This document shows, piece by piece, positions 1 to 52,000 of a stretch of 64,000 nucleotides of DNA. This DNA comes from Geosiphon pyriformis uo1 (taxonomy: Eukaryota > Fungi > Glomeromycota). Positions within the stretch are counted from its first letter, which is position 1; each line of letters starts with the position of its first letter. The notes below the pieces were generated by a model. That model saw only the letters and a program-made list of their open reading frames with translations. It was not told the origin of the DNA and did no database searches. The DNA lies in NCBI GenBank assembly GCA_016748015.1, contig JAAOMT010000664.1, positions 1,974,576 to 2,038,575 of the forward strand. Reading direction: 5' to 3'. The translations under genes were made by a program, and so were the position numbers.

Positions 1-3000
1 ACGCAATAGCCAATGTATCAACCACCCATATATCAACCTCCAGTTTATCAACTGCAGCCACCAATAATATATCAACCACCGCAGTCACACATAATTTATC
101 AGACACCCACAGTTCAAACACTGCCAGCAAATCCAGCTCAAATGACATCAGGAAACTTTAGATCGAAAGTCATCCAGAACTGAAGATCAGCAATGGTTGT
201 TTACCAACTGATTCCCAGTTCATCTAACCAGTCATCAGAACCATGACAGCAGAGTTTAGAAATGGGATATATGCAAAACCTGGGTTTCCAAAACTATTTA
301 AGTCTTCTGGTTATTCCAGAAGACACCCAACCCAATAATCAAGAAACCAACCAAAAACAATTACTTGCCAACAACATACCTCCAGCCATTGTCACCAACA
401 ATAAATCACTAATAGTGATTTTTCCATTCAAACTCAAGGAAACCACACCAGTCCTATTATTTAGTGAAGCTGCTCTTGATACCAAACCAATTACTGTCAT
501 GTACACTGATGCCAAAGTTAATGGCCATGCCATCAAACTGATCCTAGATAGTAGATTAGCTGGCAGTATCATCACATGACAACTCATGGACCAATTAGGT
601 TGCCGAGTTGATTGCACAGCTAGTGCATGCATAATCATTGCTGATGGAGTGACTAAAATTCCAATTGGCGAAATTGACAACTTCTCTTTCAAAGTTAATA
701 GCATTATTATGTCCATCAAAGTTTTAGTGATGAAAGCAACCCAAATATTAAACATTGGTAAACAATGATTGGTTATCCAAAACTAATGCTATACTTTGGA
801 CCACTCAAGAATTACAACTCAGTTAAAATAGATGACACACATGTGTACCAGCCACATGTGGCCACTTCAAAACCACCAACTCGACAACACCACTCATTGA
901 GTTTAAGGAAGAAGAGAGAAAACCTACTTGGAAAGCCTATCAAGTATCATGGACTGAAGCAGATCACAACAAGCTGCCACCAATACTATCATGGAACGAA
1001 CCAGAAAAAAGAAAACAAAGAGAAGAACTCATTTGGGAAACTGAAGATCTGACATGGACCAACAATGACAACAACAAACTGACATTAAATTGGGAGTAGA
1101 AAAAAGATAAAAGAAAAGACAAAAGGAAAGGGAAAGAAAAAGACACCACCCAAGCCAACAACACTTATATCCCAGCCACTTACGCTCTATCACAACAGTC
1201 TACCTACTGCTGACCCAAATTAATATGCACCAATTGCAGCAAGAAATTGTTGTCAATAGGCATATGCTGTGGCAACGATGAGGAATACCAAATGGTGACC
1301 AAATTTTACTACTGCATATGTGTTATAGAACACTTTGGATGACCAAAAAAGCAAGGAAAATGGAACAACAAACCTTGTCTAGCTTGTGGAGAAATCTTAC
1401 TCAATGAAGGAATGTGGAACAACATTCCTAGTCGAGAAGGAACATGTGATGCTTTGTGCCAGTACACGATCCTCATCAGCAACTGGATTAAGAAAGGGAC
1501 TCCAATAAAAGCCGCCTGGAGAAAAGCTGTACAGCAATTAGACAGTTGTCTATATGACAATAACAAGATCTGGAGAATGATGATGGCCAAGATAGAAGGA
1601 GCATCACCTGAAAAAATCAGAGAAATCAAAAACAACCCACCAGAACCCATAGAACTTGACTGGAACCCAGAACCAATCATAAACCTCCTAGATCCAGAAC
1701 AATTCTATGAACATTATCAAAAGCTAGCACCTACGAGAGAAGAGCAGAAACAATGCTTGGAAGAAATAAATACAAAACTATGTAACTATTGTTTAATTCC
1801 ATGTGACTTCTAATATTGTAATGAGTGTAATCTTATTTACAATCTACCATCATGCATGATCTACATGATCCCAAAAGAAAAAAAACCAATCAGCAGCTGC
1901 GCATCAAAATTGGAACCAACTTTTAATCCTGATTCAAACTCCGACAATGATGACAATAAAAACAATGGTTTTAGCTTCACTCCAATTAGCAACAAAAATT
2001 ATAACAATTCAAACTCCAATTCATATCTCAAAACATTTATCGCACTTCCTAACCTCACCAAGGAACAGGAACTTAAATAGTTCAGCAATAATGGTGAAAG
2101 TATTATGTCAGAATGCACACACAATACTGATGCAGGATTTGATCTAAGATATCCAGGGAAAGATCCTCTCAAATTGGAACCACATTTGCATACTTGCATT
2201 GACCTGAAAATAGCACTGAAAATTCTAGCAACAACCATGGTTCAATTAGCATCCAGGAGTAGTTTAGCAAAAAAGGGAATCAACATCAAAGAAGGAATAA
2301 TTAACACAGGATATGTAGAAAATATCATTGCTATGCTACAAAATGACTCAGAAAAAGCATATATCATAGATTCCAACGAAAAGATAGCACAAGCAATATT
2401 CCTACCTCTGGTAAAAGTAGCTCAGCTAGTGTCAGTGGGAAACAGGGAAGAATTAGGGATTACAGCTAGAAAGATATAGGAATTTGGATCAACAGGTAGA
2501 ATAGATATACCAGTTAATATGACAGAGGAAGAAATTGTTAACAAAGGAGAAATTATCTCAATCTGTTAATCAATTTCCATTCCACCATATGACCAGTACA
2601 TGTTAGCCATAAAGAGAGAAATAAAAAATCAAGCTCAGTTGTTTGAAGCAGAAGTCACTATTTGTGAATCAGGAGAGATTGGATTCACTAATTTCTATAT
2701 ATCAGCCAAAAGCCCCAAAAATATTAAAATTCCCATCTACAACACAACTGAAAATGTCATTGAGATACCAAAAAAAACCATTATCAGATACTTAACCACT
2801 GAAGTTGAGGACCAACCACCAAATCACATTTCAAATTTTCCACAACTTTGCAGATATGTGGACATTACATCACAGACTATATACAAATGAAATGAATATT
2901 ATCTACTCCAACCAGAACAATTGGAACATATCAACATGGAGAATCTAGACCCACTCCAACAAATGCAACTAAAGATGTTACTCAGCAATTTCAACAACAT

Positions 3001-4330
3001 CTTTGCAAGTGAAAATGAATTTGGCCACACCAACATCATCCAGCATCAGATCAAAACTAGAGATGCAATGCCAATTAAGCAAAGAGCATACAGAGTACCA
3101 CCAGTTAGCCATGAGATCATTCATCAAGAAATCAATTGAATGCTTAACAATGGGCTAATTCAGTTATTAATGAGTTTATGGTCATCACCAGTGGTACTAG
3201 TCTAGAAGAAGAATGGAAAAATTCACTTTTGTGTAGATTACTGGAAGTTAAATAGAGTAACCAAAAGAGACAGCTACCCAACTCCAAAAATCCAAGAACT
3301 ATTCGATGCTTTTGGAGGAAATAAATGGTTCTCAACACTAGATTTAGATAGTGGCTATTGACAAGTAGCCATGGACCCAACTGACAAAGAAAAGACTGCA
3401 TTCATGACAAGAGAAGGGAATTTCAAATTTGAAGTCATGTTATTTGGCTTAATGAATGCTTCAGTGACATTTCAATGACTTATAAAAATTGTCTATACTG
3501 GATTACTATGGAAATCAGTAGTCATATACTTAGACAACACAAATATATTTTCTAAGACATTTGATAACCATCTACATCATCTCTAACATGTATTTGAAAG
3601 ACTCAGATGAGCAGGATTGAAACTAAATGCCAATAAATGCTTTTTTGGCAAAACTGAGCTTAAGTTTTTGGGACATGTGGTAAGCAAAGATGATATCAAA
3701 ACAGATCCAGATAAGATTGTGATAGTAAAAAACTTTTCAGTACCAACAAACTTGTTAGAACTAAGGGCATTTTTGGGATTCACAGACTATTATTGCCATT
3801 TCATCAAGGACTTTTCTAAACTAGCCCAGCCACTTCACTATCTACAAACCAAGAATGTGAAGTATGAATGGATTGAAGCTCAACAAAAAACATTTGACAC
3901 ATTGAGAAAAAAACTTATTCAAGCTCCAATGTTGATGTATCCAGACCACAGCAGATGATTCATCATTACTACAGATGCATTAGGTCAAGCATTGGGAGCA
4001 GTACTATCACAGAAAAGACCAGATGGAAGAGAACATCCAGTAGCTTACACCAGTAGAAGCTTAAGTCCAGCCGAAAAGAACTATGGAACACCAGCACTGG
4101 AACATTTAACAATTTATTGAGCAGTCATAAAATGGAGAAAATACTTGAACCAAAAGTTTGAAATATATATAAACCACAAGAGATTGACTTCAATTCAGAA
4201 ACAAAAATTTGCAGACAATTGCCATGCCAGATAAAAAATAGAACTTTCACCATTTAATTATACAGTACATTATAAAAAAGGAAAAGACAATGAAAATGCC
4301 AATGGATTGTTGTGAATGAGACAAATCTAA
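1..4330 (+). pseudogene. A ORF1 remnant: gag tail, aspartic protease, Cys-rich domain, dUTPase, RT, RNase H
   Basis: ORF fragments at 1412, 2105, 2600, 2921 and 3617 share one frame; motifs AGFDL/ASRSSLA/KIAQAIF/FGSTG, FCVDY, YLDN(D), KCFFG..FLGHVV, TDALG, ending ANGLL*MRQI TAA at 4328-4330; many stops consistent with CGA/CAA/TGG mutation. Confidence 0.9.
2105..2497 (+). pseudogene. dUTPase domain of element A
   Basis: All five trimeric dUTPase motifs recognisable: DAGFDL, ASRSSLA, GIINTGYVENI (GIIDxGYxGxI), KIAQAIF, TARKI*EFGSTG. Confidence 0.92.
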
Positions 4331-4788
4331 AAACATTTCAACCCAAAAATATAACAAAACATGAATACACAAAAATACCAACAACTTCAACATTATATAA
4401 ATATTCAATTGTTCAAGGAAATTATCTCAAAAAGAACAAAACAACATAAAACAACAATCAAAATATTTTATCAATCATCAAAATATACTTTACTGAAAGA
4501 ACAGAAAAAATCCAGATCAACCAACCAGAGTAATCACAGAACCAAAGAAAGAGACAATATTATTCAACATGCACTCAGACCCAATAGCAGAACATTTTCA
4601 TAAAGAAGCAACCATGGAAAAAACCAGAAAAAAATACTATTGGCCATCAATGTATCCAAACATCATCCAATATGTTCAAAATTGTAATGCTTGTCAGAGA
4701 AGAGAAAGAACAAGACCCAGTGAACCATTAAGATCAATCAAAGTGGGACAACCATTTGATCACATTGGAATTGACTTAGTCAGACCAT

Positions 4789-5769
4789 TGTTACCAAACA
4801 AAATTAGAGATATTATTTAGCATGAAATTATCTTATAAATCCTATCATTAATTAGCATATATTATCGTTTCAAATTATCACTTATTACATTAACAAAATG
4901 TCCAAAATTATCATTTAATTAATAACCCAATTTGTACACAACACAAATATAACCTAATTGCGATAATCAAATCATGCAATACCCCGAACTATGTAACATT
5001 CAAAAGTTCACCAAAATTTGTAGAAATTTGCCGAAATAATTGATAGTTCATTGAAATATCTAATAGTTTGCAGAAATAACTTGTAGTTCACCGAAATGTA
5101 TCTTTAGTTCAACAAAATTGTAGAAAATAGCAAAGTTCAAGTTCATAGAATAATGTTATGACAAGTTGTATAAAAGAAGAGCATCTCTTTTTGAGAAAAT
5201 GTATCTTACTTTAGATTTATCTCTTAAAACCGTTCCTATACACACAAAAAGAAATAAATATCAAATAATTCGAAAAAACCAAATTTTTTAATTATTGTAC
5301 TTGGAAAATCCCCAAAACCCAACTAACGTTTTGAAATTGATTAGCTACCAATTTCAGTAAACTGTTAGTGACTCCAGGCCTGGATAGAAAAACGTTTCTC
5401 TTGATAAAATCCTATTTCTTTTACATTTCTTTTCTTTTTTTTTTTTTTCTTATTACAATTATTAGGGTAGCCTACAGACGAGATTCTTGTAGAAGAGTTG
5501 ACTTTTACAGTAAAGTAACTACACATTCTTAGTAAGCTTCCAGACGAGCAATTCCTGGGAAAGAGTTGACATTTATTACAACGTAACTACATAAAGCAAC
5601 TGGCATGGAATTGGCCATTCCACTCATAAGCTCAGCAAGTTCAAATTATAGGAGATAATTTGAAGATAAATTCAGTTACTGGAGGTTCAACTACTTTCTG
5701 GAAATGTGAATTTACAACAAATCAACATTAACAACATTTAAGAAAAGAGACCAAAAACCTCCGGTAACA
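4789..5769 (+). repeat. B 5' LTR
   Basis: Starts TGTTACC, ends GGTAACA; colinear with 13597-14577; TATA-like TGTATAAAAG near 5167. Confidence 0.96.
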
Positions 5770-5771
5770 TT

Positions 5772-5785
5772 TGGTGCTCTCCCAC
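5772..5785 (+). promoter_or_regulatory. Primer-binding site of B (TGGTGCTCTCCCAC)
   Basis: TGG (complement of tRNA CCA) 2 nt after the LTR end; decayed equivalents follow the 5' LTRs of D (~44061) and E (~28693). Priming tRNA not identified; tRNA-Thr-like is a guess. Confidence 0.8.
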
Positions 5786-5815
5786 AAAAATAACACAGCA
5801 ACAACAAAATTCAAA

Positions 5816-8800
5816 GTGGCAACCACACCAGACGCAACAACTCTAGAGTATTACCAATCAATTTACACCCACTGCAAGCAAAGATTCAACATTTCAGATG
5901 GAATTGAAGTTGTCAAGAAATCAGTATACCAATACATTGAAAACTGCATTAACAATTATCTTTTTGGAAATTACAATATCTCAGAAGTTAGAAGCAATCT
6001 TTACAATAATTTAGCACACTATTCACAGTTGGAAACTGAAGACCTTAACAGCAAAACATTTGCCACTTACTTTCACAAACTTAATTTTAACATTATCAAA
6101 TACTGTGAAAAAACATATCCAGTGCAGTCTCAATACTCTATTGATTTTGAATCAGAAACAGAAACAAGTAACAAAGGCAAAAACAAATTAAAGCAATACT
6201 CAAAAACCACCCCAAATACTCCAACACTACCAAAAACAACTGCCAAACATTTACAAACACCTGAACAAGGAACCAGTTTAAAACTTCCACTTACTATCAC
6301 ACCTTTTCCAGCTTCACTTACACAAGCACAAATGTCTAATTTACCCTTGAATCAATTTGCAAGACCAGAAGATTTTACATCACTCAGAAGTTCCATCAAA
6401 CAACAAGAACCCTTTCAAACTAGTTCCAATCTCCTTGACTTTCTAGCTGAAAATCAAAGTGAACACTTTGAAACAGCAGTAAATGAAGAAAATGAACCTG
6501 AAATATCTAAAGAAGAATTAATAGACAGTGAAAACGAAGAAGACAAAATGACAACATACATTGCAAAAATCCCTGAATTTAATGGAGAAGACATTGAGAC
6601 CAGTCCCCAAGAATGGCTTGACCAAGTTACTAAAGCTGGAGATGCAAATGGATAGAATGCTGCCAGAATGTTAAAAACAATTCCCTACTTTCTCAAAGAA
6701 ACAGCAAAAGAATGGTTTGAAAACTTGGCCACCCCATTCAATAATTGGAATGCTTTCAAAGCAGCCTTTCTTGAACAGTTTACCGACAATAATACCTCCA
6801 TCGCCCTTCGCAACTGTTTTCAAAATATCAAACAAGAACCCTCTGAATCTGTTATGACTTATATTGGGAAATTCAACAAACTTCTCAGACGAATTTGCTA
6901 ACTCAAAACAAACGATTATTATTCCAATGCTCAAATCTTGGATCAATTTATTGCTGGTCTAAAAGATAAACTAATTAAAAAGATTCACCCACATGCGCCA
7001 GAAGATTTAAACTCTGCCATACAGCATGCGAAAAGATACGAAATGGTCATGGAAGAAGCCAATTGCACAAAACTTGTAAATTTGGCAATTGGAGAAACCA
7101 GCTCAGCAGTTGAGGAAAAAATTGACCAACTTACAAAGAAGATTGAAAACTATTTTACCAATCAACAACAATAGCAACCCCAAAGATATCAACCACCCCA
7201 AAGATATCAACCACCCCAAAGATGAAATCAAAATAACTTTGCACTACTTTCCAATAACCAGCCTCAAAATTGCCATTACTGTAGAATCTCTGGCCACTGG
7301 AAAAGAGATTGCAGAAAGCTACAATGAAACCAACAAAATAGGAGTAATCAACGTTATCCTCCACTACAGCAATCTTATTATCAACCACCACCACCAGCTT
7401 ACTATCTACCAAGATCCCAATACCAAAATAACTATTATCAGTCTGTCCCACAGCCAATCCAACAGCAATACCAACAACCACCCACACAACATTATTAAGT
7501 ACCTGCTTGAAGACTGATTACACAAAATCAATTCACATTACAAAACTGATACCAAGTAAACAACAATAGAATCAGTTCAAACAACCAATTGGTTCCCCGA
7601 AATTCCACTCAACCAAGACCCAACCACTACCACACTTAACTCAGTTATTTAACAATGCCAGAAGAACAGGATTTTTACCATACTGCACCCTCGGAAGGTA
7701 GTGCTGCAGCACAACAACAAAACCCTTCCTATACTCCCACTACAATCCCACCAGCCAGAATTGCTGAAAACACTAACATTTCAGATATATTCCCTTTTGA
7801 GTTCGAAGCAAATGAGTCCCCATTCCTGCTTAGTAATGCAGCCGCCAATAAACAAAAAGCAATCACGGCTATATATACTGAAGCAGAAGTTGAAGAAAAG
7901 ACAATTTGCTTGATTCTAGACAGTGGATCCACCGGAAGCATTATTACTTACCAGTTAATGCAACAGTTAAAGAGAAATGTCAACCAACCAGCTCAAACAG
8001 TAATTGTCACTGCTGATGGCATGAAAAAGACCCCAGTAGGAGAAATTAACAATTTTTCATTTACTCTTGATGGAATCACCATTCCAGTCAAAGTTCTTGT
8101 AATGGACGCATCCCAGTACCAAGCTCTCATTGAAAATGATTGGCTTCAAAAAGCCAATGCTAATCTGAATTGGAAAACACAAGAGTTAACAATTTCCTAC
8201 CAAGGACAACATGCCCAGGTACCTGCCACTTGTGGTACATTCAACAAATGCTCTGAAAAAGCCCCGGCTTTTGAATTCAAACCGGAAGAAAAAAAACCTT
8301 TCATTGAAACATTCATGGCTCTTGGATCAACATCCAACTGGGCCGATGAAACAAAACAAGAACATTTTACCCCACACTGTGAACCTGAAACCTCTGGATA
8401 GAATATAGCTTACTCAAAACCCGAACCAAGGAAACAATGCCTCTATATTCCTCTTAAATGTAAGGACTGCCACAAGAAACTATTGTCAATGGGAGCCTGC
8501 ATTTCACCTGAAAAAGAATATGAAAATCATACTTGTTATTACTACAAAGCTTGCTACAGAGAATGATGGGGCCATCTAATAAAAAGGAGCAGAAAATGGG
8601 ACAACACCCCTTGTTTGACTTGTGGAGATATGCTACTGGAAGAATGCAATTAGATTGATGTAGCCATGAGAGGAGAAGTCTGTGATCAGACCTGCCAATA
8701 TGCTTTATCAATTTCAGAAAAAGTAAAAAGAGGAACACCCTTTAATGCGGCATACAACAGTGCTCTCAACAAACTTTATCACTACCCCCATAATGCCGAG

Positions 8801-11454
8801 ATGATTTTCAACCTAGCAATGGCATTAATTAATGGAGCTACCAAAGAAGATGTTCATCAAATGAAAGAAGCAGAATATATTGAATACATCATGGAATTAG
8901 CTGGATTCGATTACAAAGACAAAGTAGAAGTCTACCACCAAATTGCAAGTCACACCTACCCAACCCAAAAAGCTCAAATTCAATTATTAGAGCAAATAAA
9001 CATTAGGCTATGTGAAGAATGCATTATGCCTTGTAATAAACAGTGGTGTTCTGAATGCTATGCTCTTAGTATCCCCTTGCCCAGCAAAAATAATGAGAAC
9101 GAAATTGAATTTGGAGAATCTGAAGCAACAGAAGAAATTGAAATGACACCTATTTACCTTATCAAAAATCAGCCTGCTTTACAACTTAAATACTTCAACA
9201 ACAATGGACAAGGAATAAAACCTGAAAAAGCACACGAAATTGATGCTAGATATGATCTAAGATATCCAGACAAGAATACTCTTGTTCTCAAACCCAAATC
9301 TCTCACAAAAATCAATCTCAAAATTGCACTTAAAATCCCACCAAGAGCAATGGTCCAAATTACCTCCCAGTTCTTTCTGGCAAGCAAAGAAATCAATGTC
9401 AGAGGAGGAATAATCAATGCTGGATATACTGGAGACATTACAGTGATGCTTCAAAATGAAAATGACAAACCATTCAAGATTGAACATGCTAAAAAAATTG
9501 CCCAAGCTATTTACCTACCCCTAATCAACATTTCGGGTTTACAACTAGTCAATCAAAGAGAACAATTAGGAAAAAGCGATAGAGGAATCTAAGGTTTTGA
9601 TTCAACTGGACGATTCACAGTTCCAGTTAATATAGCTCTTAACACACAGAACAAATTCTACCAGATTCTCAGACTTCCACAACCAATTACCATCTTACCC
9701 TTTGGAAAACATCCAGAAATCTACATCTGTCCAAAGCCAACAACCACACAACAAATTTTTGAGTCCAATGAACAAGTCTGCTTGAAACATAATATTTTGA
9801 TTCCAAACATTTATATTTCAGAAGGAACAAAAAAAGTCCAAGTTACTTTTTACAACCCCAATAATTACCCCATAATTTTATAAAAAAAAATTTAGAAATT
9901 GGAGTTATTTACAGTAATATATTTCAACAAGAATTACCCCAAACAGTTCCCGATTTCTCTGAAATTATTGGACATTCACTACCAAAAATCCACCCAAACC
10001 CCAGCTCCGAAAACTACTATGTTGTTATGGAAAAACTATCTCGAATCAACATGGGACAACTTGAACCACAACAACAAACCCAGCTCAAAGAGCTAATTGC
10101 AAAATTTGCCGATATCTTTGCTGAAAACAACAATGACTTAGGAAGAACCGATTTGATCCAACACCAAATTTATACAGGAGATGCCAAACCAAGAAGACAA
10201 TAAGCATATTGAGTTGCTTTAGAAAGCCACCAATTCATCCAAGAAGAAGTACAACAAATGCTTAACAATGGGCTCATCCAACCCTCCATGAATCCTTGGG
10301 CTTCACCTGTAGTGCTAGTTAAAAAGAAAAATGGAAAGATCCAATTTTGTGTTGACTATCGACAACTCAACAGTGTTACAATTGAAGATGCCTACCCCCT
10401 TCCCCGGATTGATGACATGTTAGATGCCCTTGGAAAATCCAATTACTTTTCAACACTAGATTTAGAAAGTGGTTACTGGCAAGTTGCTATGGATCCCAAA
10501 GATTGCTTCAAGACAGCATTCACCACCCAAGGCGGAAATTACAAGTTCAATGTAATGCCTTTCAGATTATGCAATGTACCAGTAACGTTTTAGAGATTAA
10601 TGGATGTTGTGTACCAAAGATTTCTTTGGAAGTCAGTAGTTATTTATCTTGACAATACTGATGTTTATTCTCTATCATTCGAATTACACTTAAAACACTT
10701 GTGAGAAGTTTTTCAACGATTATGAAAAGCAGAACTAAAACTCAACATCAAAAAATGCTACTTTGGAAAAACAAGCTTGGCCTTCCTTGGGCATATTGTT
10801 AGTAAAGATGGAATCAAACCAGACCCTGGAAAAATCAGCATTGTCAAAAACTTCAAAACTCCTCAAAACACTACAGAACTAAGAGGATTCATAGAGTTAG
10901 CCTCCTACTATTGGAAGTTTATCAAAGGATTCTCAGAAATTGCAAAACCCCTCAACCAGCTCATCACCAAAAACGTTGAATACAAATGGACTACCAAACA
11001 CCAAAAAGCTTTTGAAATTCTCAAGGAAAAACTGACAACAGCTCTAATCCTCACCTACCTGGATTTTAACAACCGATTCCGATTAGCAACAGATGCCTCT
11101 TATACTGTCTTTGGTGCTATCCTATCACAATTGAATGACAATAAAAATGAGTGAATAATTGTCTATGCCAGCAGAACATTAAAACCAGCTAAGAAAAATT
11201 ATCTTGCCACAGAACTAGAAACAGCAGCCGTAATTTGGGCCTTACATCACTTCAATCTTTATCTCAAGCCTAAAGAATTTGATATTATCACTGATAATAT
11301 TGAACTCAAATGGCTTCAGAATAAAAATACTCAGCTGAATGCAAAACAAACCCAATAGACAGGATTTCTAGCAAACTATCAATACATAGTACATCACAAA
11401 CCAAAAAAACTCCACACCAATGTTGACTGTCTCTCCAGAATGAAACAAGATTAG
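5816..11454 (+). pseudogene. B ORF1: Gag (capsid-like plus CCHC knuckle)-protease-Cys-rich domain-dUTPase-RT-RNase H
   Basis: IPEFNGED..PQEWL, IKQEPSESVMTYIGKF, CHYCRISGHWKRDC (~7270), LILDSGSTGSII, GGIINAGYTGDI, WASPVVLV..FCVDYRQLN..DAYPLPRIDD, LATDAS, stop TAG 11452-11454; gag to dUTPase fragments share one frame. Confidence 0.92.
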
Positions 11455-11528
11455 AAAACACAAAAAAAAAAAAAACAAAAAAAAAACCAACACTCAACTT
11501 AACCAACCAAAAGAGCCAACAAAAAAAA

Positions 11529-12839
11529 ATGAATTCAGAAAACTACAACAATCTCAAACAATATTTGGAAACATTAACAATCCCAACAGATTGGTCTCCA
11601 GATGAAAAACATTGACTACAACAACAAGCCAAACAATATTTTCTACACAACAACATTATTTATTATCAAAATTTCAAAAACCCAAACAAACCACTCAGAT
11701 TAATACAAGAACAAGAAAAAGAGACCATATTATACAACATGCACTCAGATCCTTCATCAGCACACTTCGGAAAAGATAGCACCACCCAAAGAACACTAGA
11801 ATACTACTTTTGGCCTTGAAAGAAAAAAGACATTCACTAATATGTCGAATCTTGTAATAGTTGTCAAAAAAGAAGAGGAACACACCTTACTGAACCATTA
11901 AATCCAATCAAAGTTGGACAACTCTTTGACTGAGTTGGTATCAATTTAGTTAGACCACTATTTATCACCACTCAAGGAAACCGTTATATTGCAGTAGCTG
12001 TAGACTATCTTACTAAATGGCCTGAAGCCAGAGCCATTCAACGAGCAGATGCAAAATCAGTAGCAAGTTTCATCTACAAAGACATCATTTGTAGACATGG
12101 ATATCTAATTGAACTTTTATCCGATCAGAGGACACACTTTGTGAACAACCTGATATAAGAAATTTGCAAACGATTCAATGTCAAAAGACCTCTGTCTTTG
12201 CCCTACCATCCACAAACAAATGGACTTGTGGAACATTTTAACAGAACATTGTGTGAGTCATTAGCCAAAGTTTCAACTGATTTTGAGCAAGAGTGGGATA
12301 TCTTTATTCTATCAGTGTTGCTAGCATACAGAACACTAAAACAAGATACCACAAAACACACATCATTTGATTTAACTTACGGAAGGACAGCAACATTACC
12401 AATTAGTTTCACAGTGGAAACATACCCAGCACAACCAATTGATGAAAACAATTTCCAAGAAATGCTTTAGCAAAGAGCCTACATTCTGCTTAGCACATTA
12501 GAAGGAAAACGACAAATAGCAGCCACCCATATTGAATACTCCCAAGCTCAACAAAAAGAATGGCATGATGACAAATTGCCTCCAGTCACCAATGAATTTA
12601 AAATCGGAAACAAAGTTCTCTTACACAGAACTAAAGCTGAAAAACAATGGAGTGGAAAATTTGAAAATAAATGGGATGAACCATTCTTTATCCATGAAGT
12701 CCTAGGCAACGGATCATACAAGCTAAGACTTGATGACAAAATTCTAGCAAAAGTTGCACATGGAGATCATTTGAAACACTATCATTCCAGAAACAATCCT
12801 GAACCATTAATTCCACAAATTGGTACACATTCCTCTTTA
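11529..12839 (+). pseudogene. B ORF2 integrase
   Basis: ATG 11529 after a 74-nt A/C-rich spacer; MHSDPSSAHFG, CNSC, VDYLTKWPEA, PYHPQTNGLVEHFNRTL, KWDEPF; 3' end lost in the N gap. Confidence 0.9.
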
Positions 12840-12904
12840 NNNNNNNNNNNNNNNNNNNNNNNNNNNNNNNNNNNNNNNNNNNNNNNNNNNNNNNNNNNNN
12901 NNNN
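12840..12904. other. Assembly gap (65 N)
   Basis: Run of N; the homologous interval in D (~51090-51330) is about 240 bp, so the gap size is probably underestimated. Confidence 0.99.
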
Positions 12905-12908
12905 TATA

Positions 12909-13628
12909 ATGACTATTCCTCAAAACATTCAACAATTATCCCAAAAACTAATGTTAGCTTTAAAAACAATACCCGAATTATCCATTACTGTTACTGGAAA
13001 CCACATTAATTATACTCAAACAGAAGTAGTTACAAATTTAGCCCCAAATTCACAAAAATATCACCCATATAAGAAAAACACAAGAAGTTATTCTGGAATT
13101 CACCTGCCAGAACTTTTAAAGCTTGCTTTAAGAGAAAACTTAATGCTCACTCCAATTAGTATTCTACCAAATGCTACAATTCAACAAAGACTTCAACTGT
13201 GTCTCAATGAGAAAAACACTGAATATCCTCTAATCTATAGATATTTCCACATTGAAAAAACACTCTACAAATAGAAACTGGAACTTACAACAGCAAACCT
13301 CACAAAAAAAGCTATTCAGAAACAACTCTACAACGAATTCAAGACAACAGCTGGACCAACAAACAGTCACTACAAGCTCAGAGCTGCTTTTAGACTTTAT
13401 AACCTATTCCACACTTGTAAAAATATCTTACAAAACCCAATTTTACGACCTTTGAAGATTCAATACATTGGAAAGCTCACAGAACTGAAATTTCAACAAT
13501 TTTCAGACCAAATTTCTTCAATAATTTTGGATTACTATCTGGAAATTACAGACAGTACTTGGACTTTGATGGAGCTCAGTCTTGAAGAGGAGGTTATATT
13601 ACCAGACAAAATTAGAGATATTATTTAG
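12909..13628 (+). pseudogene. B ORF3, ~239-aa protein of unknown function overlapping the PPT and 3' LTR
   Basis: ATG 12909 to TAG 13626-13628 in one frame with a single internal stop (13272-13274); homologous ORF in D (51331-52027). Confidence 0.8.
13584..13593 (+). promoter_or_regulatory. Polypurine tract of B (GAAGAGGAGG)
   Basis: Purine run 3 nt upstream of the 3' LTR. Confidence 0.8.
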
Positions 13629-14577
13629 CATGAAATTATCTTATAAATCCTATCATTAATTAGCATATATTATCATTTCAAATTATTACTTATTACATTA
13701 GCAAAATGTCTAAAATTATCATTTAATTAATAACCTAATTTGTATACAACACAAATGTAACCTAATTGTGATGATCAAATCATGCAATACCCCGAACTAT
13801 GTAACATTCAAAAGTTCACCAAAATTTGTAGAAATTCGCCGAAATAATTAATAGTTCACCGAAATATTTAATAGTTCACAGAAATAACTTGTAGTTTGCC
13901 GAAATGTATCTTTAGTTCAGCGAAATTGTAGAAAATAGCAAATTTCAAGTTTATAAAATAGTGTTATGACAAGTTGTATAAAAGAAGAGCATCTTTCTTC
14001 AAGAAAATGTATCTTACTTTAGATTTATCTCTTAAAACCATTCCTATACACACAAAAAGAAATAAATATCAAATAATTCGAAAAAACCAAATTCTTTAAT
14101 TATTGTACTTGGAAAATTCCCAAAACCCAACTAACGTTTTGAAATTGATTAGTTACCAATTTCAGTAAACTGTTAATGACTCCAGGCCTGGATAGAAAAA
14201 CATTTCCCTTGATAAAATCCTATTTCTTTTACATTTCTTGTATTTTCTTTTCTTTTCTTATTACAATCATTAGGGTAGCCTACAGACGAGATTCTTGTAA
14301 AAGAGTTGACTTTCACAGCAAAGTAACTACACATTCTTAGTGAGCTTCTAGACGAGCAATTCTTGGGAAAAAGTTGATGTTTACTACAATGTAACTACAT
14401 AAAGCAACTGGTACGGAATTGGCCATTCCACTCATAAGCCCAGCAAGTTCAAATTATAGGAGATAATTTGAAGATAAATTCAGTTACTGGAGGTCCAACT
14501 ACTTCCTGGAAATGTGAATTCACAACAAATCAACATTAACAACATTTAAGAAAAGAGACCAAAAACCTCCAGTAACA
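13597..14577 (+). repeat. B 3' LTR
   Basis: TATTACC (TG mutated to TA)...AGTAACA; 981 bp; matches 4789-5769. Confidence 0.96.
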
Positions 14578-15589
14578 CCATTAACAATCACCAGCAGAGG
14601 CAACAGATATATTGCAGTAGCTATAGATTATCTCACTAAATGGCCAGAAGCAAAAGCCATTTAAAGAGCAGATACAGAATCTGTTGCCAAATTTGTTTAT
14701 CAAGATTTGATCTGTTGACACAGATGTCCAAAAGAACTACTATCAGATCAAAGAACTCACTTTGTGAACAGAACACTGGCAGAATTAAGTCAAAGATTTG
14801 GAGTTAAAAGACCATTATCATCACTATACCATCCACAAACCAATGGACTAGTTGAAAGATTTAATAGAACACTGTGTGAAGCAGTTGCTAAGATCAGTCA
14901 AGAAAACCAGCACGAATGAGATTTGTTTGTACTATCAGTATTATTTGCTTATCGGACAATAAAGCAAGACACTATACAAGCAACACCATTTGAATTAGTA
15001 TACAATAGAACAGCAACATTACCAGTTGAGATAAAAGTCAACACTTATCCAACAGAACCAATAACTGAAGACAATTTTCAGGAAATGTTGCTAAAAAAAA
15101 CATATGACTTGATAGAAACTCTAGAAAACAAGTGACGAAGAGCAGCTGATAACATTCAAAAGTCACAAGAGAAACAAAAAAAAAGACACAATAACCAACT
15201 ACCAGACAAACCAGTTGAATTCAAGATTGAAGACAAAGTACTTCTACATCGTACTAAAGTAGAAAAACAATGGAGTGGAAAATTTGACCCCAAATGGGAC
15301 GGACCATTTCACATTGAAGAAATTTTTGAAAATGAAGCTTATAAATTAAGATGGGACAACAGAATCTTAATCAAAGCAGCATATGATGATCAACTAAAAC
15401 CATATCACCAGATAACATCATTATCTACCAATAACATTTCACAACTGGGAGTACAAAGAATACTAGTCCAACCAGATGAAATTCTACGAGATCTGGAACC
15501 AATCATAATCATTAGACCAAACATGTAAAATTGAACAAACCGAAGAGTATATAAAGACACAGTATATATAACAAAAGCAACCAAGAAAA

Positions 15590-17017: not shown

Positions 17018-20000
17018 TCATAAATTATCTATTAACTCCAATTAATTCAAACACTATACCAAATTACTGTGCCAACTAAGAACCAAAGGCTGAAAATAAC
17101 ACATATACAATAAAATTGAAAATTGGCAATAGTCATGTATCAACCAATCTTTAATACATTAAATTAGTTATTAGGATTATGTTCAAAAAATTTGAGAAGT
17201 GAATACACCCAAAACCTGAATTTTCAGAACTATTTAAGCCTTCTAATTATAACCAACTTACTCAACAATCTGAATACCAATTACAAATTACTTATCAACA
17301 ATATTCTATTAGCAATTATTATAGAAGACAAATCATTTATAGCTATTTTTTTTTTTGAGTTAAAAAAATTAGCAATAATATTACTATTCAGTAAAGTCAT
17401 TCTTAACATAAAACCAATTACTGTAATATATACTGATGCCAAAGTTAATGGCCACTCTATTAAGCTAATTCTTAATAGTAATTTAGTAGGCAGTATTATT
17501 ACATGATAACTTATAAACCAATTAAGTCATTGAGTTGATCATGCTGTCAGCACCAGAATTATTACTGCTAATAGAGCCATTATGACTTTTATTGGTAAAA
17601 TTAATAACTTTCTATTTGAAGTTAACAGCATTATCATGCCAATCAAGATTTTTGTTATAAAAGCCACATAGTATTAAGCACTAATTGGTAATAACTGGCT
17701 GTCTAAAACCAATATTATGCTTGACTGAAACACCCAGAAGCTATAACTTAATTAAAATAATTAGCAAATTTGGGTATCTGTTACTTATAGCTATTTCAAG
17801 CCAACTATTATGCATCTACTAATAAATTTCAAGAAAAAAAAAAAACCTATCTGAGAAACTTATTAAGTTTTTTGGGCCAATAAAAATTACAACAAACTAT
17901 TATTAATCTTGATCTGGAAAGAAAAAAAACAATTTTATGTTATTATCTCAACATATACTCCATATGATATCACACTCCAAATAACCAAATTATTGGTAAT
18001 TCAAACTAATATGTGTCAATTGTAACAAGAAATTGTTAACAATAGGTGCATATTATAGCAATAACAAAGAATAGCCAATAGCAACCAAGTATTATTATTA
18101 CTCATGTGTCCTTGAATGCTTTGAATAACCCAAACAACAAGAAAAATAAAACAATGAGTTTTGTTTTGCATGTGAAATAAATTTTTTCAACAAAGAAATG
18201 TGGAATGACATTTCTGGACAAAGAAAAACATGTAATAAAGCATGTCAATATATAATTCTAATTAACAACTGAGTATGGAAAAGAACTTCAATTGATGCTA
18301 TTTGAAAACAAACACTTATATATTTGAAAAATTACTTATACAATGAACATAAAATCTGGAAAATAATGAGTGTTAAAGTTAAAAGTGCTTTATTCAGTAA
18401 AATATTAGAAATAAAAAATAATTCACCAATACTTTCTAAACTCAAATTTGTTCTAACTTTTGATGTTTCAATGATGTTATGAATAATTCAAAACAATTCT
18501 ACAAGTACTACCAAAACCTAGCAATGACTAAAAAAAAACAAGAACAAAAGCTAGAACAATTAAATATGAGATTGTACAAATATTGCTTAATTTTTAGTAA
18601 CTTTGAATATTGTAATAATTATGATTTCATCTACAATTCACCACCACATATAATCTATTTAATCTCCAAAAAAGAAGAATCAATCAGCAAATGTGCATCA
18701 AAATTAAAATCAAAAATCAATTGTAATTTAGACTTTAATAATAATAACAATAATAGTTCCAACTCTATTTACAATAACAACAATAACAATAACAATTCCA
18801 ATTCCAATTCTGAACCGTATATTATACTCTCAGATTTTTCAATAAAGCAGAAACTTAAATGGTTTAGTAATAATAACAAAAATATTATGTTAAAACACAT
18901 GCATAATACCAATACAGAATTTGATCTCAGGTATCTAGGAAAAACTGCTATCAGATTAGAACCCCATTTGTGTACCAGTATAAATCTAAAAATAATACTG
19001 GAAATTTTAGCAATAACAATAGTCTAATAAGCCTTTAAATTTAATTTAATAAAAAAAGAAATTAATATCAGAAAAAGAATAATTGATACAAAATATGTAA
19101 AAAATATTATTGTAATACTACAAAATAACTCAGAAAAAGGATATGTAATTGAACCAAATAAAAAAATAACACAGGCAATATTTCTGTTTCTGGTTAAAAT
19201 AACTTAATTAATATTAATAAGAACAAGAAAAAAGTTAAGAATTACAGCAAAAAAGATAAAAAGATTCAGATCAACAAATAAAATAGATACAGTGAACTCT
19301 CTTTATAGTTCCTTTAGTTATAGTCACTATCTTCTTATAATCACATTTTTTTAAAAACCAAAACCATTTATATATAATATTATCTTTTTATAGTCACTTT
19401 TACTATATATATCTTCTTATAGTCACTTTTACTATATATATCTCCTTATAGTCTCTATCTCCACAAATATGATAGCAGAATATAAGTAATTTCTACTCTC
19501 TATAGTCACACTATAATCATATAATATTAGATATGAACATCAGATATCATCTCATATTTAATCGAATATGTACAGTTAGGAAGATTTCCCAATTGTCAAT
19601 AGAAATCATTCTTTTTATGGTAGTAAAAAAAATTAGAGAAGTTTCTGGAAACAATTGTAGAACATTAAACAAAATTTTTCAAATATTACAACATTCAATT
19701 ACTCTTTTTTATAAGCTGCCACCACCATCAGAAGACAATGATGAAACTATTATATCTGGTTTGTTGTTTGCGGGTATTATAAGAGTTTTAATAATAGTTG
19801 ACATATGGTACAGTACTGCACTTTGGAGGCTGTTGTTGTGAGTATCAATGAAGTTACTTTGGATCAAACTTTGGCTAATGAGATTACTTTTTCTTTATAT
19901 TGGGAGAAAGAATTAACAGACCTACAAGTGAGAATAATGGCCCAATAGGATTCTCTGGGAACAAGTTTGTTAATGAGACATTGCTCGAGCAAATCAACTG

Positions 20001-20439
20001 AGAACAGAGTTTGAATTTATCTTTCCTTAGGAAGAGAAATGTGATCAGTAATAAAACTCAGAGCATGAGAATTCCAATATATATTCAATAAATACATTTT
20101 CACATCAACTTTGACATCTACAATTAAAAAAAGACTCCATACTAGCAATCATATTCATCATTTGACCAATATTTAGTATTAGTGAGTGAAATTTTGACTG
20201 ATAGTTTTAAAGATGTATTAAAAATCAACTTTTTTGGGGCAAATAAATCTGTGTTAAATGCTTTTTATAATCCAAACATAATTATGCAGAATAGAGATTC
20301 GGACCTAGACTCAACATATTATGTTTTAAAAATGCCAATTATAAATGGTAATGCACTTAACCCAAGGTAAATAAAACTGTACACAATACAATATATTTCT
20401 AACTTTTTGAAGGATATTTATTAGGCTGTCACATGATTA

Positions 20440-21480
20440 ACTTGATAAGCTTTGAAAACATAATCACTTAAAAGAGGTATTAGAGAGTTAATAATAGGCA
20501 ATAGTTGTGATTTTATTAACAGATTTACATTTTTTGATGATCTGCTTCTTTACTTGTTACTAGAATTGGTTTTCAAGTACTTAACAATGTTTTTTTAATT
20601 CGTTTTGCTTTAAAAAAGTCTATTTTTTTCATCTGTGCAATTTTACTGAATTTTTTTATTTCTTTACTTAATATCTATTTATGGCCAATATCACAAAAAA
20701 CATGATTAGAAACATTTGGATTTACAAACTGTGTCTTTCTTATCTGAACTTGAAATCGATTTGATTCAGCAATAAAGCTAAGACATGTATGAGACCTGTA
20801 TATTTCACTTTTAGAATATCCAATAACATTAAAGAGGTTAGTATGCAATCTCTTAAATTTGATACAGTTACATACTGCAATTTCCCAATGCCATTGTGAA
20901 AGTGTAGAAAGAATTAATGATTTAAGCATTTTGTTAATTTCTTCAAGTATTGCATTATGGCTTTGATGTTGATTTGAAAGTTTAAATTGAGAAATTACAA
21001 TTCTTTCTTAAATCAGCTTGTAAACTTCAGGCTTTAATTGTAGTCATTGTTCTTTATCAGCAATTTCAATTAATTGGTAAATAAGATAACACCAAGCAGA
21101 CCAAATTGGTCCAAACATTTGTCTAGCTGTGAGTTTTAATGAAAACCTATTGAAACAAACTCCAGTGCAAAAGTTAATAATTGTTTGTAAATAAAAAAAG
21201 ACTTGTTCATACTTTAACCTGAATATGGAATCTGTTTCATTTTGGGCTCATTCTAAATAACCTTCAACAGATAGATTTTCTTTAGAAACAACATATAACC
21301 ACATTAATTTGGAAGCCATTGCATGCTTATATATATTACATATCAAATTCCATGACTTATGATGATCAGGACATTTTTTAAAAAACTGCAGTTGACTTTT
21401 ACTCTGATATCTCTGATATTGTGCAAAGTATTTTATATCAATATTCCAATTGATATAGGCATTGCTGTGTTTGAAGGGCT
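20440..21480 (-). pseudogene. Cargo coding fragment inside the pogo element (uncharacterised, possibly transposase-like)
   Basis: Minus-strand decayed reading frame: WNIDIKYFAQYQRYQSKSQLQFFKKCPDHHKSWNLICN..YKHAMASKLMWLYV..FRLKYEQVFF..NQHQSHNAILEEINKMLKSLI...; includes ORF 20675-20929. Confidence 0.6.
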
Positions 21481-23383: not shown

Positions 23384-26300
23384 AATATATATAATTGGTT
23401 ATTATATTATGCATATGATATATAGATCATGTGATAAGATATTGATCATTTTTTATAGTTCTATCTTTCTATAGTCATCACAAATGTGCTGACCAAAAGG
23501 TGTGATTATAAAAAAAGTTCACTGTATATCAGTTAATATAACAGAAAAAGAAACAATTGATAAAAAAAAATTATTTTTACTCATCAATCAATTACCATTC
23601 TATCATATAACCAGTATATAGTAGTAATAGAAAAAAAGGTAAAAGACAAAACCAAAATTTTGAAGTTGAACCAACTATTTGTAAATCAGAAGCAATTAGC
23701 ATTACCAATTTTTACATACCAGCCAAGAATCATAAACACATCAAGTTTTTAATATAAAACACAACTAAAAACTTCATAGAAATACCAAGTGAAACTATCA
23801 TTAAATACTTAAGCACTGAAATTAAAAACAAATTACCAACCACTATTTTCAATTTTTTACAACTTTGTAAATATGTAAATATCATATTACAAACTATATA
23901 CAGATAAGAAAAATGCTATTTGTTGTAATCAAAGCAATTAAAACAAATAAATTTGGAAAACTTAAATTCACTTTAATATATGCAACTCAAGATGCTATTT
24001 AACAATTTTACTAACATTTTTGTAAATAAAAACAAATTTGGCAGAACTAATATTATCTAGTATTAGATTAAGACTAAAGATATTATGTCAATCAAACAAC
24101 AAGCATACCAAGTACTACCAACTAGCCATAAGATTATCTGACAAGAAATCTACCAAATATTGAATAACAGATTAATTTAATTATTAATAAGTTCATAATC
24201 ATTACTAATGGTACTGGTTTATAAAAAGAATAAAAAAATCTGCTTTTATGTAAATTATAGAAAGCTCAATAGTATTATTTATAGAGACAGCTATTTGATT
24301 CTATGGATCCAGGAATTATTTGATGTTTTTGAAAAGAAAAAATGGTTTTCAACATTAAACTTAGATATTAGTTACTAACAAGTAGCCATAAATTCAGTCA
24401 ACAAAGAAAAAACAGTATTCACCACCAGAGAAAAAAATTTCGAATTTGATGTTATGCCCTTTGGCTTAATCAATACTTCAGTTATCTTTCAATGGCTTAT
24501 AGAAATTGTATATACCAAATTACTATAGAAATTAGTAGTAGTTTACTTAGATAACACCAATGTGTTCTCTAAAACATTTGATAATTATTTCTACTATTTT
24601 CAACAAGTGTTTAAAAAACTAAGAAGAGCTGAATTAAAGTTGAATACAACTAAATACTTCTTTGGCAAAATTAAATTCAAGTTTTTGAAACATGTTGTAA
24701 ACAAAAATGGCATCAAAACAAATACAAACAAAATTAAAATAGTTAAAAACTTTTTAATACCAACAAACTTAACAAAATTAAAAACATTTTTGGAATTTGC
24801 TAATACTATTGCTGTTTTATCCAAAACTTTTTTAAACTGGCTCAATCACTTTACCAGCTTCAAGCAAAAAATATGAAATATAAATGGATAAAAACCCAAT
24901 AAAAAGCTTTTGATATCTTAAGAAGAAAGTTTATTCAAGCACTAGTACTAATCTATTTAAATTATAACAAGCTATTTATTATTATTACCAATATATTTGG
25001 TCAAACATTGAAAGCTGTATTGTCACAAAAAGAAACAGATAAATAAAAACATCTAGTAACATATGTCAGCAAAAGTCTAAGTTTAGCTAAAAAGAACTAT
25101 AGAACTTTAGTATTAGAATACTTAGCTATCTATTAAGCTGTTATCAAATAGAAGAAATATTTGAATTAGAAATTTAATGTATACATTAATCATAAAGGAT
25201 TAACATTAATCCAAAAACAAAAATTTGGAAACAATTGCCATATAAGATAAAAAATAAAACTATTACTATTTAATTATACTGTACAATTTAAAAAAATAAA
25301 AATGCTGATGGTTTGTTATGAATAAGACAAATTTAAAAAACATTTCAATCCAAAAATATAACAAAAAAATGAACACACAAAAATATTAACAATTCTAATA
25401 TTATATTAATACTCAATAGTTCAAGAAAAAATTATCTTAAAAGAAACAAAACAACATAAAACAATAAGCAAAATATTTTATAATTTACCAAAATATATTA
25501 TATTAGAAAAACAGAAAATATCCAAATTAGCTACTCAAAGTAATCACAGAATTAGAAAAAAAACAATACTATTCAATATGTATTTAGATCCAATAACAGA
25601 ATATTTTTATAAAAAAGCAATCATAAAAAAAAACAAGAAAAAGATATTATTAGCTATCTATATATCCAAATATTATTAATATGTTCAAAATTGTGATGTT
25701 TGTTAGAGAAAAAAAGGAACAAAACTTAGTGAATTATTAAGACCAATTAAAGTGAGACAACTATTTAATTAAATTGGAATTGACTTAGTTGGATCATTAA
25801 CAATAACCAGTAAAGACAATTAATATATAACAGTAGCCATAGATTATTTTATGAAATAACCAAAAGCAAAAACAATTCAAAAAACAGATACAGAATTTAT
25901 AGCTGAATTTGTTCATTAAAATTTGATTTGCCAATACAAATATTCAAAAAAATTATTATTAGATCAAGAAACTCACTTTGTAAACAGAACATTAGCAGAA
26001 TTAAGTCAAAAATTTGGAATTAAAAAACTATTATCATTATCATATTATTCACAAACAAATGGTTTAGTTAAAAAATTCAACAGAACATTGTGTAAAGCAA
26101 TAGTTAAAATCAGCCAAGAAAACCAGGACAAATAGAATTTGTTTATACTAACAATATTATTTGCTTATTAGACAATAAAACAAAATATCATACAAGCAAC
26201 ACAATTTAAGCTTGTTTATAATAGAACAGCAATATTATCAGTTGAAATAGATATTAATACATATTTAATAAAACCAATAATAGAAGCCAACTTCCAAAAA

Positions 26301-49000: not shown

Positions 49001-52000
49001 TTAAAGTTAAACATTGAAAAATGTCATTTTGGAAAAACAAGTTTAATTTTTCTTGGACATATTGTTAACAAAGATGAAGTCAAACCAAATTCTAAAACAA
49101 TCAGTGCTGTCAAAAACTTTCAAACTTCCAAAAATACCACAAAGCTACAAGAATTTGTAGAATTAGCCTCCTACTATTAGAAATTCATAAAAAAATTCTC
49201 AGAAATTGCCAAACTACTCAATTATCTTACCAACAAAAATGTGTTATATCAATAGACTGAAAAACAACAGAAGTCTTTGAAACCCTCAAAACAAAATTGA
49301 CAACAGCTCCAGTTCTTATTTACCCAAACTTCAACAAATAGTTCTAACTAGTTACTGATGCTTTACATATAGCATTTGGTGCCATTCTATCACAATTAGA
49401 TAAAAATAGCCAAGAACAAGTTATTGTTTATACCAGTAAGACACTCAAACCAACAAAACTCAAATATGACTCAACTAAATTAGAAGCTATTACAATCATT
49501 TGGGCTCTTAAATACTTTCAACAATACTTGAGGAATGGAAAAGAATTTGACATTATAATTAACAATATTGGCCTTAAATGGCTCAATAAAAAAAAACTAA
49601 ACAAAGTGTCAAACAGTCTTAATGGAATAATTTCTTAACAGACTACAAGTATATTATACATTACAAACCAGAAAAATTACACACCAATGTTGATAGCCTT
49701 TCAAAAATAAAACAAAATTAACACCAACAACAATTTCACCACAACTTACCAATCTACCAACAAAATAACCAAACAACAATAGATTTCAGAAATTACAACA
49801 ACATTAAAAACTATTTGGAGACTTTTATCATGTCAGAAAATTGGTTTTCAAGTAAAAAACATCGGTTACAACATCAATCAAAACAATATTTTATATACTA
49901 CAACAAAATTTATTATAAAAATTGCAAAAATCCAAACCAATTACTCAGATTAGTACAAAAAAATAAAAAAAAAACAATTCTATATAACATGTACACAGAT
50001 TTTTCTTCAACATACTTGAAAAAAGATAGAACAATTCAAAAAACCCTTAAATATTATTTTTAGCTCTACATATAAAAAAACATTTAACAATATGTAGAAT
50101 TTTGTAATAGTTGTTAAAAAAGAGAAAGAACTTGCCTCATGGAATCTTTAAATCCAATCAAAGTTGAACAATCTTTTGACAGAATTAGAATTGATTTAAT
50201 TAGACTATTACCTATTACAACCCAAGAAAATTGTTATATTGCAGTTGCAGTAGATTATCTTACCAAATGGCTTAAAGTTAGAATCATCCAAAGAGCAGAT
50301 ACAAAATTAGTAACAAATTTCATTTATGAAGACATTATTTGTAGACATAAATGTCCAATTGAACTTTTATCTAATCAAGAAACACATTTTGTAAACAACT
50401 TGATACAAGAAATTTGTGAATAATTTAATGTCAAAAGATCTCTATTATCACTTTATTACTCCCAAACAAATAAACTTGTAAAACGTTTTAACAGAACATT
50501 GTGTAAATTTTTAGCCAAAGTCTTAACTGATTTTGAGCAGGAATGAGATATATTTATTTTATTAGTGTTACTAACATACAAAACACTAAAACAAAATACT
50601 ATGAAACACACACTATTTAATCTTACTTATGGAAAAACAACAATATTACCAATTAATTTCACAGTGGAAACACATCCAGTGCAACCAATCAATAAAAAAA
50701 ACTTTCAAAAAACACTTCAAAGAAGAGTCTACACTTTTCTTAGTACTCTGAAAGAAAAAAGACAAATAACAGCCACTCATATTAAACACTCTCAAGCTCA
50801 ATAAAAAGAAAGACATAACAACAAACTGCTACCAATTACCAATGAATTTAAAGTTGGAAATAAAGTTTTCTTATACAGAACTAAAACTGAAAAACAATAA
50901 AGTAAGAAATTTGAATATAAATGAGATAGACTATTTTATATTCATAAAATCTTAGACAATAGATCATACAAATTAAAACTTAATAACAAAATACTAACAA
51001 AAGTTGCATATAGAGATTGATTAAAACACTATTATTTCAAAACAAATTCTGAACCATTAATTTTACAAATTGGTACACATTCTTCTTTAATTAATCCTAA
51101 AGATATTTCTTAAAATTTAGAACCAATAGTTATAATAGAACAATAACCAAACTTGGACACTTAATTTAACATTTTTATAACAATCCCTTTAATAATACAC
51201 AAAATGTAAAACAAAAATAGTAAATAATTACAAAAAACACCCAACTCCAAAAAACAAATAAAATCTTATATTCAAAAATTATTTTTTTTATTTTTTTTAA
51301 AAGTTTTATTTATTAGTTAGTTATTTTATTATGATTATTCTTCAAAATATCCTAAAAATTAATATTAGCTTTGAAAACACTTTTTAATTTATTTATAATG
51401 ATTAATAGAAGTCAAATTAATTACATTCAAAAAGAAACCACAGCACCAATAGTAAATAATTCTTAGAATTATTACTCTTATAGAAGAAATACAAGAAGTT
51501 ATTCTGAAATTCAATTACCAGAACTTTTAAAGCAAGCATTAAAAAAAAACCTTTTATTTGCCTCTATTAACATTTCACCAAATACTATAATTTAACAAAA
51601 ACTTTTACTATTTCTCAATAAACAGAACAATAACTATACTCTTATCTATATATATTTTCATATTGGAAAAACACTTTATGAACGAAAACTGGAACTTAAA
51701 ACAACAAACATCACTCTTGAAGCTATATAAAAACAAATTCACAATGAATTCAAGACAGCAGCTGGACCAATAAACACTTACTACAAAGTTAAAACAGCTT
51801 TTAAACTCTATAACTTATTTAATACTTGTGAAAATGTCTTACAAAATCCAATACTTTATCCAATAAAGATTCAGTACATTGGAAAGCTTACAGAACTGAA
51901 ATTTCAACAATTTTCAGACCAAATTACTTTAATTATCTTGGATTACTATCTTAATATTACAGATAGTACTTGGACTTCAATGAAGCTTAGTTTTGAGAAA

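Follow-up and report, generated by a model that had tools for sequence, protein, structure and literature searches.

In long terminal repeat (LTR) retrotransposons, integrase (IN) is normally carried into the particle as part of Pol. For Ty3/Gypsy elements, the consulted part of PMC3248453 gives IN within the Pol polyprotein as the usual description. We have analyzed a 64,000-nucleotide stretch of the genome of the glomeromycote fungus Geosiphon pyriformis (contig JAAOMT010000664.1, positions 1,974,576 to 2,038,575; this whole stretch is called the window below), which is a nest of decayed LTR retrotransposons holding four Ty3/Gypsy-type copies, A to D, of a Glomeromycotina-type fungal lineage. 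In these copies, among them element B, IN is encoded outside Pol, in an open reading frame (ORF) of its own behind the stop codon of the reverse transcriptase (RT)-RNase H (RH) frame.

The elements share with Ty3/Gypsy their TG...CA LTR ends, a 4-bp target duplication (the range in the excerpt of PMC12440569 is 4–6 bp), a motif resembling a primer-binding site, a polypurine tract, a Ty3-type capsid, an RVT_1-type RT, and the order protease (PR)-RT-RH-IN, and the best solved-structure match of the IN of a relative is Ty3 Gag-Pol (E 3e-26). They differ in the placing of IN outside Pol and in an extra conserved ORF behind IN (ORF3). A chromodomain at the IN C terminus, the mark of chromoviruses, is listed neither for the IN of B, whose end falls in a gap of N, nor for the 120 listed homologs of near-IN length. 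The lineage is filed as a Gypsy-like variant, as IN within Pol is the usual description of that group and not a phylogenetic criterion. Troyka elements (Kuafuorterviruses) have CG...CG ends and a 3-bp duplication, unlike the TG...CA ends and 4 bp found here. PosPlaTy3-5 also carries a dUTPase between PR and RT, but the available portion of PMC2864245 places it in Pol and mentions no separate IN, and the present families differ from dUTPase-bearing fungal Gypsy elements (PosPlaTy3-5, Tmt1) in the Cys-rich domain that precedes the dUTPase. Ginger and Polinton also have stand-alone Gypsy-type DDE integrase ORFs, whereas here IN lies between RH and the 3' LTR in complete LTR elements (B, D, and the relatives L017 and L021); a DNA transposon of the Ginger or Polinton type, which has terminal inverted repeats and an IN gene that is not part of an LTR retroelement, was rejected for the elements with DNA context, in which IN sits within LTR elements bearing Gag and RT. 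In foamy viruses, too, an enzyme gene is detached from the Gag polyprotein and requires a way of its own to enter the particle, but there the whole PR-RT-IN Pol is separate, whereas here IN alone is cut off. No published description of the split layout was found in the literature searched, with Repbase reports, most subscription papers, and supplements outside its coverage, nor is it described in the consulted parts of PMC3248453, PMC5911963, PMC2864245, PMC12440569, PMC11673190, and the preprints 10.1101/2021.03.30.436303 and 10.64898/2026.05.21.726589.

The Stop between RNase H and IN

Self-comparison of the window sorts the copies into two families, family 1 with A and C and family 2 with B and D, and B has inserted within the IN gene of A, leaving a CCAT target duplication at 4785–4788 and 14578–14581. 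In all four copies the stop lies three to four codons past the end of RH, after a degenerate xDxLSR motif, and is followed by a short, unstructured, G-free or nearly G-free spacer and by the start of IN (Table 1). A second in-frame TAA stands within the spacer of A (4352–4354). A preliminary description, made from the letters alone, had given the positions of the stops and IN starts and the spacer lengths correctly for every copy, and its shared frames, from Gag to dUTPase in B and from the Cys-rich domain to RH in A, are also as we find them. It had called the spacers non-alignable, which does not hold for A and C, whose spacers align almost letter for letter; its four copies in two families thus amount to two independent cases.

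Decay is heavy in these elements and consists mostly of transitions (57 of the 60 differences between the two LTRs of B), so that the caveat in the preliminary description, that four C-to-T lesions might mimic a conserved stop, was fair. CA is also the commonest context of C-to-T change. However, among 700 codons of RT and IN that align across the four copies, 33 are a stop in one copy, 10 in two, 2 in three, and 0 in all four. Upper-bound rates of Gln-to-stop change of 0.08, 0.11, 0.35, and 0.24 give a product of about 7e-4. The 2,166 contigs of run X1 on the junction of A hold 27 variants at ≥3%, none of them at the stop (4328–4330), at the second TAA, or at the IN ATG, while a stop private to A at 4313 shows C in 29% of the depth. 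Run X1 is possibly the source sample, and its contigs show other copies in the same genome and are not independent support; the contig test covers family A, and fixation in family 2 rests on B and D. Within that scope and at the 3% floor the stop and the IN ATG, whose fixation the preliminary description had put forward for checking, are both fixed, and the C at the stop with an open linker that it had named as the sign of decay was not found, the family-A contigs being without C at that position.

The Split Arrangement in Relatives

A search for proteins of near-IN length returned 1,137 matches, the best 120 of which were listed, and one chimeric gene model was left out. Among the 119 listed homologs, 99 begin with Met exactly at the IN start of B, 16 start at a later Met, and 4 otherwise. 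The closest named protein among the matches listed is from G. pyriformis (85% over 37% of the IN of B), and other named matches among them are from Rhizophagus, Cetraspora, Paraglomus, and Entrophospora, which makes a Glomeromycotina fungus the likely host. The cut falls exactly at the RH-IN linker of fused relatives, and IN begins at its first helix.

Of 572 confirmed metagenome loci 80 were kept, and 39 show both the RH end and the IN start. With a score of ≥375 bits to the IN profile, 18 of 19 loci with the junction in view are split, and of the 20 below 375 bits 15 have the fused form and the other 5 seem broken; because the cut-off was set post hoc and the profile was built from stand-alone INs, these counts do not give an unbiased frequency. 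The split form is common and intact. RT-RH frames of the split loci are open for 157–1,164 codons up to the motif, and their INs are mostly stop-free. Two of them, L017 and L021, are close to whole elements, and the ends of their LTRs resemble those of B. Viral contigs yielded only 3 weak, unrelated loci. These data confirm that the layout, fixed in family A and present in intact relatives, is not a product of decay.

The preliminary description had also proposed an ancestral plan, which reads [Gag-PR-Cys-dUTPase-RT-RH][IN][ORF3] with the domain names used here. This holds for the two families of the window, and intact open-frame relatives keep the split, but the dUTPase and the Cys-rich domain are confined to the window's families, and the joining of Gag, PR, and RT varies among relatives (one frame, a likely −1 frameshift, or likely UGA readthrough). 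TGA followed by CTA is a readthrough context, and a single in-frame TGA-CTA, likely a readthrough site, lies between PR and RT at L005:870, L021:3358, and L029:1585. In L011 and L017 a TTTAAAC stands ahead of the Gag stop, likely for a −1 frameshift.

Expression of IN

We read these elements as a fungal Ty3/Gypsy lineage in which IN has a gene of its own, with its own ATG beyond the stop of RT-RNase H, and is produced, with a probability of roughly 0.5, by termination-reinitiation. Ribosomes translating the full-length RNA would terminate at the RH stop and restart at the next AUG to make IN, which would enter the particle without a polyprotein tether, probably at a low ratio to Gag and perhaps through its binding to genomic RNA, to RT, or to the protein encoded by ORF3. 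Separate expression and recruitment of IN are suggested by the gene order, and the packaging route is one that we infer throughout.

Gaps between the RH stop and the IN ATG were compiled for 18 junctions of relatives, with L004 added through homology of its upstream ORF and L042 not included. They measure −11, −8, −1, 2, 5, 30, 39, 62, 63, 63, 74, 82, 89, 110, 163, 365, 521, and 727 nt and occur in all frames; in 5 of the 18 the ATG lies within −11 to +5 nt of the stop, once as TAATG. A review gives overlaps of this type for reinitiation that follows a long ORF, among others in the fungal viruses CHV1 and HvV190S and in SART1, a non-LTR retrotransposon, in which the second ORF starts at or near the first stop (PMC10275272, in the part consulted), but these belong to other element classes, many gaps here exceed 30 nt, and the present junctions are known from sequence. 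The 14 spacers of 20–200 nt contain a single ATG, where shuffles would lead one to expect 8.2 (Poisson p about 0.002), and an ATGA overlap also couples IN to ORF3 in L002. So, too, L018:3-2433 is a two-ORF chain coupled to IN by ATGA overlaps, whose middle ORF matches the restriction endonuclease Mrr_cat_2 (E 5.5e-9). We favor termination-reinitiation because the stop-start overlaps and the ATG-depleted spacers fit it.

Two groups of observations weigh against this reading, the first of which concerns the lineage. A search for longer proteins gave 980 matches, and close fused forms are few among the best 120 listed. P0122, P0123, and P0125 are fungal gene models that lack the RH end motif and the IN start, the stop having likely been spliced out by gene callers, and P0127, known as a protein alone and without DNA, keeps the motif and a long linker. 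P0129 (Gag-PR-RT-RH-IN) and P0126 (RT-RH-IN and the ORF3 domain in a single chain) look truly fused. The trees are unrooted and set the split rows beside fused relatives, with no named Gypsy reference set. A FastTree RT-RH tree of 143 rows places 17 of 17 split rows, the three gene models, and P0129 in one group (support 99), but an IQ-TREE LG+G4 tree of 44 rows does not resolve the split group, and a mixture-model RT-RH tree, a quick run, unites P0126 and P0129 with 13 of the 15 split rows (support 90), L009 and L043 falling outside. Each of the three trees has the two window families as sisters (97–99). In the FastTree IN tree, a group with support 94 takes in most of the split and stand-alone rows together with P0126, but neither P0129 nor L043. 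Comparing RT and IN phylogenies, as had been suggested, therefore groups most split rows, but RT monophyly of the split lineage is model-dependent, with fused members in or near the group. A single origin of the split is likely on these alignments. The split is present in both window families, but for the clade as a whole it is no more than possibly ancestral, because P0126 and P0129 are fused and lie in or near the clade.

The second group concerns the mechanism. Gaps of 365, 521, and 727 nt hold ATGs at chance level (L005, L021, L025), and scanning from the RH stop cannot easily cross them. According to the part of PMC10275272 consulted, reinitiation of the TURBS type, named for the termination upstream ribosome-binding site, declines beyond about 30 nt; 13 of the 18 gaps are ≥30 nt, and those of the window are 30–74. 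An ATG-free spacer fits a subgenomic leader equally, and reinitiation behind a Pol made by frameshift or readthrough would yield very little IN. In the available part of PMC5371799, Ty3 capsid (CA)-RT-IN rescued cDNA synthesis and CA-IN did not, and Ty1 IN alone did not rescue it in trans.

Several of these points would be met if IN, with ORF3, came from a subgenomic RNA, spliced or from an internal promoter, an account that is possible but less probable than termination-reinitiation. Foamy viruses express Pol separately by such an RNA. The long gaps with their chance-level ATGs, the long extra RH tails of L003 and L021, the TURBS limit, and the small amount of IN that reinitiation should give downstream of a recoded Pol favor it, short ATG-free spacers would suit its leader, and it would solve the stoichiometry. 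However, the 40 nt ahead of the IN ATG contain no YAG in 12 of the 18 relatives and in all four copies of the window, the stop-start overlaps would have no need, and several ATGs lie just upstream, in the RH end of A. We also weighed, and set aside, a splice acceptor that would immediately precede the IN ATG: G at 4360 in 64% of the depth gives AG-ATG in family 1, and family 2 lacks it.

It is more doubtful that a structured element starts IN internally on the full-length RNA, with no need of upstream translation. Right before the IN start, ten loci carry a common hairpin that ends about 2–14 nt ahead of the ATG, its bulge being A-rich and its loop CANNGUGA; 93% of its cells are paired, 8 of 10 pairs are changed on both sides, and 0 of 500 shuffles score as high, although nine of these loci form one group at 97 in the IN tree and their relatedness inflates the covariation count. 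Against such a role, a search found the hairpin neither in the window nor in the remaining split loci that it covered, individual folds do not exceed shuffles in stability, the pairing was traced by eye in the very sequences that were scored, and the hairpin may equally bind a protein or aid reinitiation. Rfam had no match in any of 10 loci, of which 9 carry the hairpin, and the hairpin pattern gave 0 matches in viral contigs and 2 in prokaryote genomes, both without the stem and with a weak model score. At least 5 members of the hairpin sub-clade have a conserved tail containing Trp, His, and Cys behind RH.

Continued low-level production of an RT-RH-IN fusion by readthrough of the stop or by frameshift is very unlikely. 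The spacers of A and D are multiples of 3, that of D is open, and the TGA-CTA sites of three relatives suggest that the clade can recode. Yet only 4 of the 18 gaps are in frame and 2 of these hold a second stop, the second in-frame stop of A is without variant in the family-A contigs, TGA-CTA occurs at no RH-IN junction, and all 69 INs of an alignment, chosen for being full-length, have the invariant Met1. That the four stops are convergent C-to-T lesions in an ordinary single Pol can be dismissed with near certainty, given the invariant stop beside a variable 4313, the absence of a stop common to four copies among the 700 codons, the intact split relatives, and the shared Met start of IN homologs.

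ORF3

The ORF3 of B is 62% identical to that of D, and in relatives the ORFs that follow IN are homologs of one another, forming a family of 518 representatives at 50% identity with a predicted all-helical domain (predicted local distance difference test score 96). B's ORF3 matches this family weakly (HH probability 43%, E 2.5e-4), and it is the sole match in the window at E 0.25, so that its membership is probable, if weakly so. No consistent Pfam family was found in 105 members, and there was no Atlas match and no Foldseek match at E 0.001 in the PDB and viral libraries, which does not show a new fold; the best VIA match has Z 5.2 and a root mean square deviation of 3.4 over 69 residues. The fusion of ORF3 with IN in P0126 hints at a joint role.

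Other Features of the Window

Pfam finds Retrotrans_gag and Ty3_capsid above the cut-off in B and zf-CCHC below it, as B is a decayed copy. The Cys-rich domain between PR and dUTPase, of ~210 residues, is present in both families (8440–9080 and 1200–1830) and has no Pfam match. The frame of B is broken near 9880–9890, ahead of RT; a programmed frameshift there in family 2 was rejected, since D is in frame at that point. Just ahead of RT, A and C of family 1 carry an in-frame stop in corresponding codons (TGA/TAA; 2885–2887 in A), which may reflect recoding or the decay of a single codon common to the two. A further LTR element with TGTTAC...GTAACA ends and no evident coding region (27281–31192) is inserted into the ORF3 of C, and an open frame of 528 codons without a Pfam match lies at 58776–60362 (+).

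Table 1. Coordinates of the elements, of the parts of B, of the RH-IN junctions, and of the hairpin loci
Feature	Position	Strand	Remarks
Element A (family 1)	1-4788, resumes at 14578		self-comparison
Element C (family 1)	about 17200-27280		self-comparison
Element B (family 2)	4789-14577		LTRs 94% identical
Element D (family 2)	43090-52976		LTRs 89% identical
5' LTR of B	4789..5769	+	TGTTAC...GTAACA ends; 94% identity to 3' LTR
Primer-binding-site-like TGG motif of B	5772..5783	+	just inside 5' LTR; candidate, from sequence only
ORF1 of B, decayed	5768..11454	+	N-terminal extension through RNase H; stop TAG 11452-11454
Gag capsid and zinc knuckle, B ORF1	from 6548	+	
Protease, B ORF1	about 7840-8200	+	
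Cys-rich domain, B ORF1	about 8440-9080	+	
dUTPase, B ORF1	about 9220-9590	+	
RT, B ORF1	about 10320-10800	+	followed by RNase H
Spacer of B	11455..11528	+	74 nt, A/C-rich; no ATG, no predicted structure
IN ORF of B	11529..12839	+	own ATG; H2C2, rve core, SH3-like; end hidden by N gap 12840-12904
ORF3 of B	12909..13628	+	239 codons, one stop; extends into 3' LTR
Polypurine tract of B	13584..13593	+	from sequence
3' LTR of B	13597..14577	+	
Junction of A (family 1)	4328..4363	+	stop TAA 4328, 30-nt spacer, IN ATG 4361; IN resumes at 14578
Junction of B (family 2)	11452-11529	+	stop TAG 11452, 74-nt spacer, IN ATG 11529
Junction of C (family 1)	25334..25371	+	stop TAA 25334, 32-nt spacer, IN ATG 25369
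Junction of D (family 2)	49719..49781	+	stop TAA 49719, 57-nt spacer, IN start codon ATA 49779
Hairpin loci	L002:186-223, L003:4464-4501, L004, L007, L012, L019, L023, L028, L032, L040		

Implications

We suggest, tentatively, that these elements belong to an undescribed, Glomeromycotina-wide, polycistronic branch of LTR retrotransposons, in which IN would be translated alone, with the upstream stop, and in one sub-branch a new hairpin, controlling it, and the helical ORF3 protein, of unmatched fold, would bring IN to the particle or the target. A lineage with a freed IN must make, package, and time this enzyme otherwise than as part of Pol, by a route that Ty1 and Ty3 apparently lack. The split would explain the many stand-alone "integrase core domain" gene models in the genomes of mycorrhizal fungi, and pipelines that splice out the stop or require a single Pol frame would be expected to misread such elements. 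With these elements, the question of why IN stays on Pol becomes directly testable.

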